From a virus: a DNA stretch of 64,000 nt. Location of the stretch: the UHGV virus genome UHGV-0385297. One strand, written 5' to 3'. The position numbers were made by a program, and so were the translations under genes. The notes below the pieces were generated by a model. The model ran no database searches. It saw nothing but the letters and a program-made list of their open reading frames with translations, and had not been told where the DNA came from. Below, piece by piece: positions 17,493 to 18,467 of the stretch (within the stretch, counting starts at the first letter, position 1; each line of letters opens with the position of its first letter).

Positions 17493-17601
17493 TTATTATC
17501 CCCTTCCATAATTTTGTAGTGTAATTATACCTTTGGAAATATATGGTTTCCATACCAAAAATATGGAAGAATTGGAAATAAATGGAAGAGCATTTTTGAT
17601 T

Positions 17602-17630
17602 TGACAAAACTCTCCTTTATGAATATACTT
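17602..17630 (+). promoter_or_regulatory. Sigma-70-like promoter TTGACA-17-TATACT
   Basis: Consensus -35 with a 17-nt spacer and a near-consensus -10, upstream of the 34-aa peptide gene. Confidence 0.5.
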
Positions 17631-17698
17631 AATAGTGCATAAGCAGGTACGCATACTTATGAAACTTTCGGCACATAAGAAGAAAGGAGAGTTCTGCT

Positions 17699-17803
17699 AT
17701 GCAATTTGATTTGCAAACCATTTACTACATTACAATGATCAGCGTTACGGTTGTCAGACTGATACGTGACATTGTTAAAGACATCATGGATCGACATAAG
17801 TAA
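17699..17803 (+). CDS. 34-aa hydrophobic/charged-tail peptide MQFDLQTIYYITMISVTVVRLIRDIVKDIMDRHK (type I toxin-like)
   Basis: RBS AAAGGAGAG, own promoter, antisense to the tail operon, within a roughly 1 kb gap in the minus-strand operon. Confidence 0.45.
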   Translation: MQFDLQTIYYITMISVTVVRLIRDIVKDIMDRHK

Positions 17804-18467
17804 CTAATTAACAATAGATTTTATTTAGCATGAGTTCAAGTATAAGGAGTCTGACCAATTCCTCCGAATAGCAAATATCTTATGTATAGATACAGAAGTA
17901 GAATTGCTAAATAAAATCACCTCTTGAATTTATCAATAATTAGTGGTATATTAAATATGTAGTAAATATGCAGAACTCAAAAGTTCGTGAACTGGTCATT
18001 CACGAGAAGAGTAGTAGAAATAAGCATCCAAGTGTATTGGGTGCTTATTTCTGTATTATAGGAGAGCAGCAGATCTTCCTGACTATTTTTTCACTGTTCA
18101 TATCCAGTACCTCATCACAGGTATATCATCTGTTTTTACAGCCATTGTCTTGGCTAACCGTTATAATTTATGTTCACACCAAAGCTTATAAAGTTCATTC
18201 ATCTGTGGAGATTTTTTCCATACAAAAACGATTCTATTTTCATTTCCACAAATGATATCCACTAACTGACCAGCAGACAAAGATGAATTTAAATATTTAT
18301 AATTCTGCTGCATATTAGGAATATACCTTACTTCTTCGGTTTCATATTCAGTTTGAAAAATATCACTATATTCTTTTATATCCTGTCACTCCTTTAAAAT
18401 CGTAAAAAATAGGCTATACTGAAATACTGAATAGTAAATCGGCATAGCCTACGACCTTAATAACTCA

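Follow-up and report, generated by a model that had tools for sequence, protein, structure and literature searches.

A candidate type I toxin-antitoxin-like cassette with a predicted co-directional small RNA in the tail operon of an SPbeta-like prophage

The UHGV virus genome UHGV-0385297, analysed here as a stretch of 64,000 nucleotides (nt) that is referred to as the window, carries on its plus strand a gene for a 34-residue peptide, pep34, within a tail operon that runs on the minus strand. Judging from related loci, this gene is part of a discrete 476-base-pair (bp) cassette, 17593-18068, that was inserted or is lost by repeat-mediated deletion. The reading favoured here, tentatively and with a little less than even confidence, is that of a type I toxin-antitoxin (TA)-like module with an unusual co-directional layout, in which the antitoxin RNA would be encoded downstream of the peptide, on the same strand and within the same predicted transcript. 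The candidate antitoxin is a ~100-nt unit at the 3' end of that transcript: its first 22 nt are complementary to two segments of the translation initiation region of the peptide gene, and an extended -10 promoter is positioned to start transcription at the first bases of the complementary segment.

The peptide gene

The gene is preceded by a sigma-70-type promoter for the peptide mRNA at 17601-17629 (+), in which TTGACA (17601-17606) and TATACT (17624-17629) are separated by a 17-nt spacer; it matches the consensus at 11 of 12 positions, in agreement with the consensus promoter that a preliminary description of this DNA had placed here, and is the best match between 14 and 20 kb of the window. 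Transcription is predicted to start near 17636. A Shine-Dalgarno (SD) sequence, AAAGGAGAG, is found at 17683-17691 (+), 7 nt 5' of the ATG of a 34-codon open reading frame (ORF), MQFDLQTIYYITMISVTVVRLIRDIVKDIMDRHK, that occupies 17699-17803 (+) including the stop codon. Both the leader SD and the ORF had been announced at this place, and the picture of a free-standing peptide gene, equipped with its own promoter and directed against the tail operon, holds as well, the operon being one that encodes a YomU-like tube protein, a YomO-like protein and a tape measure.

Promoter matches at 11 or more of 12 positions number four in the window against 4.25 expected in first-order Markov sequences, and the promoter alone is therefore not significant. 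Strong SD sequences combined with an ATG are found at just four sites on the plus strand of the 53 kb that are antisense to the late genes, and at two of the four, 15327 and 17699, a promoter is present upstream and a terminator downstream. The combination of promoter, SD, ATG and terminator is significant, lying beyond what would be expected by chance.

The peptide had been described as having a hydrophobic core and a charged tail, and a short core is indeed seen, the 13-residue stretch TIYYITMISVTVV, together with a C-terminal half, RLIRDIVKDIMDRHK, that is amphipathic and rich in charged residues. The Kyte-Doolittle mean reaches 1.83 in the best 13-residue segment, and AlphaFold2, run on the single sequence, predicts one helix over residues 5-33 with a predicted local distance difference test (pLDDT) score of 93. 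The label Fst-like does not hold in the sense of family membership, as no model in Pfam (including Fst_toxin), NCBIfam, PHROGs or PADLOC matches pep34 at E<=10. A phmmer search of 1.84 billion representatives returned pep34 alone, a cluster look-up found no protein outside its own cluster, and the GTDB genomes gave zero matches; IMG/VR was searched with exact and degenerate DNA patterns, and the GenBank phages by tblastn and blastn. Three protein variants are known, namely the reference, D4N and V19I.

The 3' RNA element and its pairing with the initiation region

Downstream of the ORF, a structured spacer is predicted at 17818-17917 (+), closed by a 13-bp stem (17818-17830 with 17905-17917), and is followed at 17924-17952 (+) by an internal promoter, TTGAAT-17-TATATT with an extended -10 (TGg) and a predicted start at ~17957-17960; a promoter this good is seen roughly every 3.8 kb along a strand. 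Next come an anti-initiation element at 17957-17978 (+), composed of ATGTAGTAAAT, AT and GCAGAACTC, an 8-bp hairpin in the body of the small RNA (sRNA) at 17985-18005 (+), and a terminator at 18015-18060 (+), made of a 17-bp hairpin (18015-18053) and a U-rich tail, which would provide a common 3' end for the peptide mRNA and the sRNA. An automated terminator scan missed this hairpin owing to its differing stem rules. Between the stop codon and the internal promoter no canonical terminator is found, and the peptide mRNA should therefore carry the 3' element in cis.

The anti-initiation element is complementary to two segments of the initiation region, with a duplex energy of -23.2 kcal/mol. As found in the minimum-free-energy fold and in a duplex scan, segment 1, GAGTTCTGC, at 17689-17697 (+), lies in the SD-AUG spacer and is complementary to 17970-17978, and segment 2, ATTTACTACAT, at 17720-17730 (+), covers codons 8-11 and is complementary to 17957-17967. 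Both helices are perfect: GAGUUCUGC (17689-17697) pairs with GCAGAACUC (17970-17978) over 9 bp, and AUUUACUACAU (17720-17730) pairs with AUGUAGUAAAU (17957-17967) over 11 bp. The 22 nt between the paired mRNA segments are predicted to form a small hairpin that holds the AUG.

The 427-nt transcript 17636-18062 has a fold z-score of -4.87, which falls to an unremarkable -1.5 when the last 110 nt are removed, and the 105-nt 3' unit has a z-score of -5.66. In the predicted ensemble, the SD-AUG spacer is paired at 99.5% in the full-length RNA versus ~54% without the 3' element, and codons 8-11 at 95% versus 21%; a separate sRNA offered to the 3'-truncated mRNA is predicted to bind the same sites, with a free-energy difference (ddG) of -12.5 kcal/mol. 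Among the non-self targets of the 27-nt sRNA seed on both strands of the 64-kb window, where duplex energies have a mean of -8.1 kcal/mol and a standard deviation of 2.7, the initiation region ranks first at -23.2 kcal/mol, the next best reaching -21.0 kcal/mol, and an equally strong partner within 300 nt upstream is found for 11 of 1500 random 27-mers (0.7%). Two secondary targets of the seed, 60011-59990 (-) and 7444-7419 (-), were taken as chance matches, being imperfect and not located at gene starts. The anti-initiation element is invariant in all copies of the cassette, including that of L050, a 95% identical locus whose nine substitutions all lie outside the sRNA and the paired segments. 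A search of Rfam with 17593-18068 gave no match at E<=5.

Boundaries and distribution of the cassette

The cassette begins 8 nt before the -35 element, ends shortly past the terminator and is bounded by a 6-bp direct repeat, AGAGCA, with a left copy at 17587-17592 and a right copy at 18063-18068. Two related loci, L044 and L046, are without exactly 17593-18062 and have one AGAGCA copy each, window positions 18063-18480 being joined there to 17176-17592 at the junction aaatggaAGAGCAGTAGAtcttcc; since a single repeat copy remains in the empty site, 17593-18068 would be either an insertion or a segment deleted through the repeat. Degraded copies are found in L047 and L049, where the promoter and the 3' RNA unit are missing, the ORF is reduced to 17 residues or carries a stop at codon 6, part of the structured spacer (~17847-17868) is kept, and unrelated plus-strand genes follow. 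Among 15 copies, six variable sites fall in 17181-18069 versus 30 in the adjacent 390 nt. A search for diverged cassettes, bridged by the neighbouring 101-residue gene p101, recovered L050 (the 95% copy), L044 (empty), and L047 and L049 (degraded), and no diverged functional copy was found among the p101-bearing relatives. On these comparisons, the cassette is restricted to one narrow phage lineage.

The slot occupied by the cassette is, from the same comparisons, a hypervariable cargo site, which in distant relatives holds genes for a holin, an XhlA-like protein, an endolysin and helix-turn-helix (HTH) proteins, as well as unknown plus-strand genes. In three relatives the slot downstream of the 74-residue gene that borders the cassette is a lysis cassette (L021 7421-8127, L015 9529-10292, L005 9590-12292), with holin-like proteins, an XhlA-like protein and a 464-residue glucosaminidase/amidase endolysin; in the window phage this slot is devoid of lysis genes. 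The cargo of L047 is flanked by an 11-bp direct repeat, AGAGCAGTAGA, and has the same insertion point as the window cassette, which suggests a recombination hotspot.

Proposed mechanism

On the favoured reading, 17593-18068 would be a self-contained accessory cassette (a moron) in a cargo slot among the tail genes, where a near-consensus housekeeping-type promoter would drive a ~420-nt mRNA against the late operon. The encoded peptide would be a single helix of 34 residues, in which a 13-residue hydrophobic core precedes a charged amphipathic tail. The last ~100 nt of this mRNA would constitute a unit served by a separate extended -10 promoter, with its 5' end accessible and followed by a hairpin and a strong terminator. 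Pairing of the first 22 nt of the unit, over 9 bp with the SD-AUG spacer and over 11 bp with codons 8-11, would trap the AUG in a small hairpin between the helices. The full-length mRNA would be translationally closed in cis, comparable to the hok fold-back, and a separate ~100-nt sRNA would close in trans any mRNA that is without the 3' element, comparable to trans-type type I antitoxins. The role of the module may be that of a type I TA-like addiction or defence system expressed from the lysogen. The elements in the sequence, their complementarity, the predicted folds and the pattern of presence and absence among relatives are directly observed; transcription and translation of the cassette, the toxicity of its product and the division between trans and cis control are what we infer from the sequence.

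Several observations weigh against this reading. The 13-residue core is rich in Thr, Tyr and Ser, is bounded by Gln6 and Arg20, and is short for a membrane-spanning toxin. No homolog was found beyond copies that are at least 95% identical, in a space that comprised the 1.84 billion representatives, IMG/VR, the JGI metagenomes, the GTDB genomes and the GenBank phages; copies this similar offer too little divergence for tests of covariation, of the ratio of non-synonymous to synonymous substitution rates (dN/dS) or of purifying selection, the ORF having just two known non-synonymous changes and a single synonymous one. The statistics on the cassette elements are post hoc, and, to our knowledge, no type I system has an antitoxin that is co-directional with the toxin and downstream of it. 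Furthermore, the cassette has decayed in L047 and L049 without obvious consequence.

Another such point comes from L042 (ENA ERZ27309979 k141_103115), a single 3.5-kb metagenomic contig, in which an insertion sequence (IS) with a DDE_Tnp_1 transposase (468-2500) abuts the cassette at 17937, in the spacer of the sRNA promoter. The peptide promoter and ORF are retained, and the IS replaces everything from 17938 on, including the sRNA promoter, a loss that would be lethal if a potent toxin were controlled by this RNA alone. The IS is followed by a host-like SIS-domain gene and not by phage DNA, and the contig represents an assembly chimera or else a prophage that has been rearranged or truncated; it is weak evidence against strong toxicity.

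Alternative explanations

The rival that survives best, itself unlikely, is an ordinary moron whose product is a non-toxic small protein expressed in lysogeny, with a membrane or regulatory role such as superinfection exclusion or modulation of a host protein, and whose 3' element only tunes translation or mRNA stability. Such a product would fit the moron layout and its presence or absence among relatives, the unrelated cargo in the same slot, the shortness of the hydrophobic core next to an amphipathic helix in the C-terminal half, and the tolerance of L042 to the loss of the RNA element. However, tight occlusion of the SD-AUG spacer by a dedicated, promoter-bearing element is typical of harmful products and is therefore counted against a harmless one, and the cassette carries nothing else functional.

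It is improbable that the locus produces only non-coding RNA, with the ORF untranslated, the ~420-nt and ~100-nt transcripts acting as regulatory RNAs and the pairing serving as architecture or as a processing signal. The ORF bears no sign of selection, the RNA fold is very strong, and a near-threshold match to the drum sRNA family lies 500 nt away in a region rich in RNA genes, all of which would suit this explanation; on the other side, the arrangement of AAAGGAGAG, an ATG 7 nt further on and 34 codons belongs to a set of just four on this strand within 53 kb, the pairing hits exactly the SD-AUG spacer and the early codons, the next-best seed targets in the window are not at gene starts, and Rfam gives no match at E<=5.

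Distinctly improbable is a chance ORF, or the decaying remnant of a formerly larger cargo region, as suggested by the promoter-less copies of L047 and L049, cut to 17 residues or interrupted by a stop, by the narrow lineage distribution and by a promoter score that on its own is at chance level. Against decay stand the elements themselves, all of them intact and near-invariant in the window as well as in over 20 further copies, with flanking DNA that varies tenfold more; a promoter, SD, ORF, anti-initiation element, second promoter and terminator are also unlikely to occur together.

The preliminary description had raised the question whether the gap between 17.5 and 18.46 kb encodes a cognate antisense RNA, and this idea is borne out only in part: an RNA partner is predicted there, on the same strand as the peptide gene, but a cis-antisense RNA is not supported. 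A system of the Fst/par type or of the SPbeta type (bsrG/SR4, yonT/SR6), with a convergent minus-strand antitoxin as suggested by that description, can be given very little credence: the best minus-strand promoter candidate in 17600-18160, a weak extended -10 promoter at 17954-17927 (TTAATA-16-TGaTAAATT), would yield an RNA antisense to the 3' untranslated region (UTR), the 18015-18053 hairpin could terminate in both directions, and read-through of the late operon would itself be antisense to the whole mRNA, but the candidate RNA folds with a z-score of -1.2 versus shuffles and has no terminator, no other minus-strand promoter of at least 9/12 is found in that interval, and neither peptide nor RNA matches a family.

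Comparison with known systems

Type I systems generally have an RNA gene that is adjacent to the toxin gene and complementary to the toxin mRNA, and such a gene is predicted here at 17924-18060. In the trans-type systems (tisB/istR-1, zorO/orzO, shoB/ohsC, ralR/ralA) a small toxin gene likewise lies beside a separately transcribed sRNA, and antitoxins of the tisB/istR-1, zor/orz and ralR/ralA class act with 16-21 nt of complementarity (PMC4041452, PMC4147584). Their antitoxin genes are divergent or opposite, and most of the RNAs target the 5' UTR or coding sequence instead of pairing across the SD-AUG spacer, whereas in the cassette the sRNA gene would be co-directional, downstream and nested in the 3' UTR of the toxin mRNA; there is no homology between the two. 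In hok/sok, a 3'-proximal element pairs with the 5' initiation region and leaves the mRNA inert, as is predicted for the cassette. However, hok uses the cis-antisense Sok RNA and the leader ORF mok, while the cassette has no leader ORF and its fold-back element has its own promoter; homology is again lacking, and the host of the cassette is a Firmicute.

Closer by phage family are bsrG/SR4 and yonT/SR6, the type I systems carried by SPbeta (PMC5848175), which, like the cassette, combine a small prophage-borne peptide with control by an RNA. Unlike the element described here, SR4 and SR6 are convergent cis-antisense RNAs, which reach over the 3' end of the toxin gene and promote mRNA degradation, and these systems differ from pep34 in genomic position and show no sequence similarity to it. 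Prophages of Clostridioides difficile also contain type I TA systems, which stabilise them (PMC7699646). As for Fst/RNA II, the par system of pAD1, its ~33-residue peptide resembles pep34 in that a hydrophobic helix separates a short polar N-terminus from a charged C-terminal tail, and its antitoxin RNA, which contacts the initiation region, ends at the same terminator as the toxin mRNA, as is likewise predicted for the cassette. The par RNAs are convergent and pair via direct DNA repeats, whereas the cassette RNAs would be co-directional and pair via inverted repeats; furthermore, pep34 matches no Fst/Ldr model and no convergent RNA pair is found at the cassette.

Phage morons are autonomous promoter-gene-terminator units between late genes that are present or absent in close relatives, all of which applies to the cassette, but most described morons encode a protein without a built-in RNA repressor. 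An arbitrium system (aimP/aimX) was considered and rejected, as the N-terminus of pep34, MQFDLQ, is acidic/polar and has no signal peptide, and no AimR-like gene is adjacent.

It can be proposed, as a possibility that is on the unlikely side, that the cassette represents a new type I TA architecture, in which an sRNA gene nested co-directionally in the toxin 3' UTR serves as a lock in cis and at the same time as an antitoxin in trans, within a 476-bp cassette that inserts with 6-bp repeats at a hotspot of SPbeta-like Lachnospiraceae prophages. If true, an orphan toxin and a new gene layout would be added to the type I TA systems, and a co-directional antitoxin that also serves as a 3'-UTR lock would escape current search strategies, which are directed at antisense RNAs in overlapping or divergent positions. 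The cassette would moreover provide a first example of such a module in the large uncultured SPbeta-like prophages of the Lachnospiraceae, which are abundant gut commensals, and the prophage-stabilising or anti-phage modules of these prophages are essentially uncharted. The significance is limited by the fact that prophage type I systems are well known, including those of SPbeta, and that the present case is sequence-based and concerns one narrow lineage.

A second cassette in the same phage

The preliminary description had counted pep34 as the third small hydrophobic peptide gene encoded against the late operon and had seen in this a recurring strategy. A second similar cassette supports this for one of the two other peptides. 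It lies at 15142-15500 (+), is of the same general kind and also runs against the grain of the operon; it has a promoter at 15142-15169 (+), TTGTAA-16-TGcTATAAT with an extended -10, followed by a leader of ~150 nt, the SD AAAGGAGG and a 26-residue, very hydrophobic ORF, MSEAVLVSLINGATAIIVAVIALFKK (15328-15408, +), and a terminator at 15470-15489 (+). The predicted mRNA folds with a z-score of -6.64, its 5' UTR pairing with the AUG region, and the L044 and L050 lineages are without the interior of the cassette (15169-15458). A cis-antisense RNA could end at a strong minus-strand terminator, 15133-15102, which lies immediately upstream of the next gene of the operon. The strategy thus appears to recur within this phage, while a crude screen of 41 related loci for hydrophobic peptides on the opposite strand gave few candidates and did not reveal generality beyond it.

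The gap and the adjacent minus-strand gene

The gap in which pep34 lies had been given as 1 kb. The actual non-coding stretch is 17493-18160, or ~670 nt, since a conserved minus-strand gene occupies the rest. The minus-strand ORF that had been placed at 18166-18324 with 52 residues is in fact located at 18161-18313 and has 50 residues from its ATG; it had been put forward as an antitoxin candidate, which is ruled out by its being part of a late-operon gene that is conserved across distant relatives. This ORF is the C-terminal two thirds of a frame of ~74 codons (18164-18385, -), whose protein is 62-78% identical in ~25 relatives in which the tube protein is just 66-79% identical. Conservation reaches upstream of the ATG (IKEYSD.F..E.E.VR.IPNM), and therefore the gene has ~74 codons. 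Some relatives begin it with an ATG (MEIKEYSD), at a place where the window lineage has CAG, so that the ATG at 18313 is the sole canonical start left, with the 24 codons upstream of it still open. In the window, the gene starts either at a non-canonical codon, which may be the ATA at 18379-18377, 9 nt after AAAGGAG, or at the internal ATG. On the plus strand, a 95-residue ORF at 17968-18255 was rejected as a gene, being frameshifted by a 1-nt indel in 99% identical relatives.

The phage and its neighbourhood

The window phage is SPbeta-like. YomW, YonB and YonD_N domains (Pfam) are also encoded by neighbours of the pep34 cassette, and the genes of the window from ~6 kb to 53 kb are on the minus strand. 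The tail genes that flank the cassette encode a 265-residue protein (YomU_Tube in a relative) and a YomO-like protein of 197 residues, and the PhageMin_Tail tape measure of the same operon lies at 10095-14486. Identical copies of the peptide gene sit in contigs of up to 1.29 Mb, and relatives are found in metagenome-assembled genomes of Lachnospiraceae (Kineothrix, Lachnospira and others), which together identify the phage as an integrated prophage of gut Lachnospiraceae; among the isolated phages in GenBank none resembles it.

The immediate neighbours of the cassette are the conserved 74-codon gene and p101 (17187-17492, -), which has its own divergent promoter at 17552-17524. Since p101 also occurs without the cassette, it is not an obligate partner of it, and its predicted structure (pLDDT 64) is insufficient for a fold search. 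Its promoter region (17493-17592; also in L044, L047 and L049) contains repeated (A/T)TGGAA(G/A) motifs and an inverted repeat, TGGAAA...TTTCCA, which are possible operator sites. On the far side of p101, a near-threshold match to the drum RNA family (RF02958) is found at 17011-17116 (-), with 40.1 bits versus a gathering score of 43 (E = 2.7e-5), within a 466-nt ORF-free gap that separates p101 from RusA (16109-16720) and on the strand of the late operon.

Elsewhere in the late region, probable defence or moron cargo lies downstream of the tape measure at 6428-8442 (-), where a GmrSD_N (DUF262) protein (7453-8442, -) and a DUF3990/PARP-like protein (6428-7084, -) are encoded. Stop-codon recoding, suspected from the absence of listed ORFs in 318-5635, was rejected, as a giant minus-strand ORF of at least 1853 codons fills the region (1-5700) and continues past the start of the window. 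In the early region, an HDV (hepatitis delta virus)-like ribozyme (RF02682, HDV-F-prausnitzii) matches 58731-58800 (+) with a score of 44.1 versus a gathering score of 44. Perfect TTGACA promoters at 55663 (+), 55764 (+) and 55980 (-) probably mark the early/lysogeny control region. Finally, a 375-residue protein encoded at 62257-63384 (+), whose N-terminus bears an HTH_3 domain while its long C-terminal part matches no domain, recalls communication receptors of the RRNPP/AimR type in its size and layout and is followed by a 94-residue ORF.

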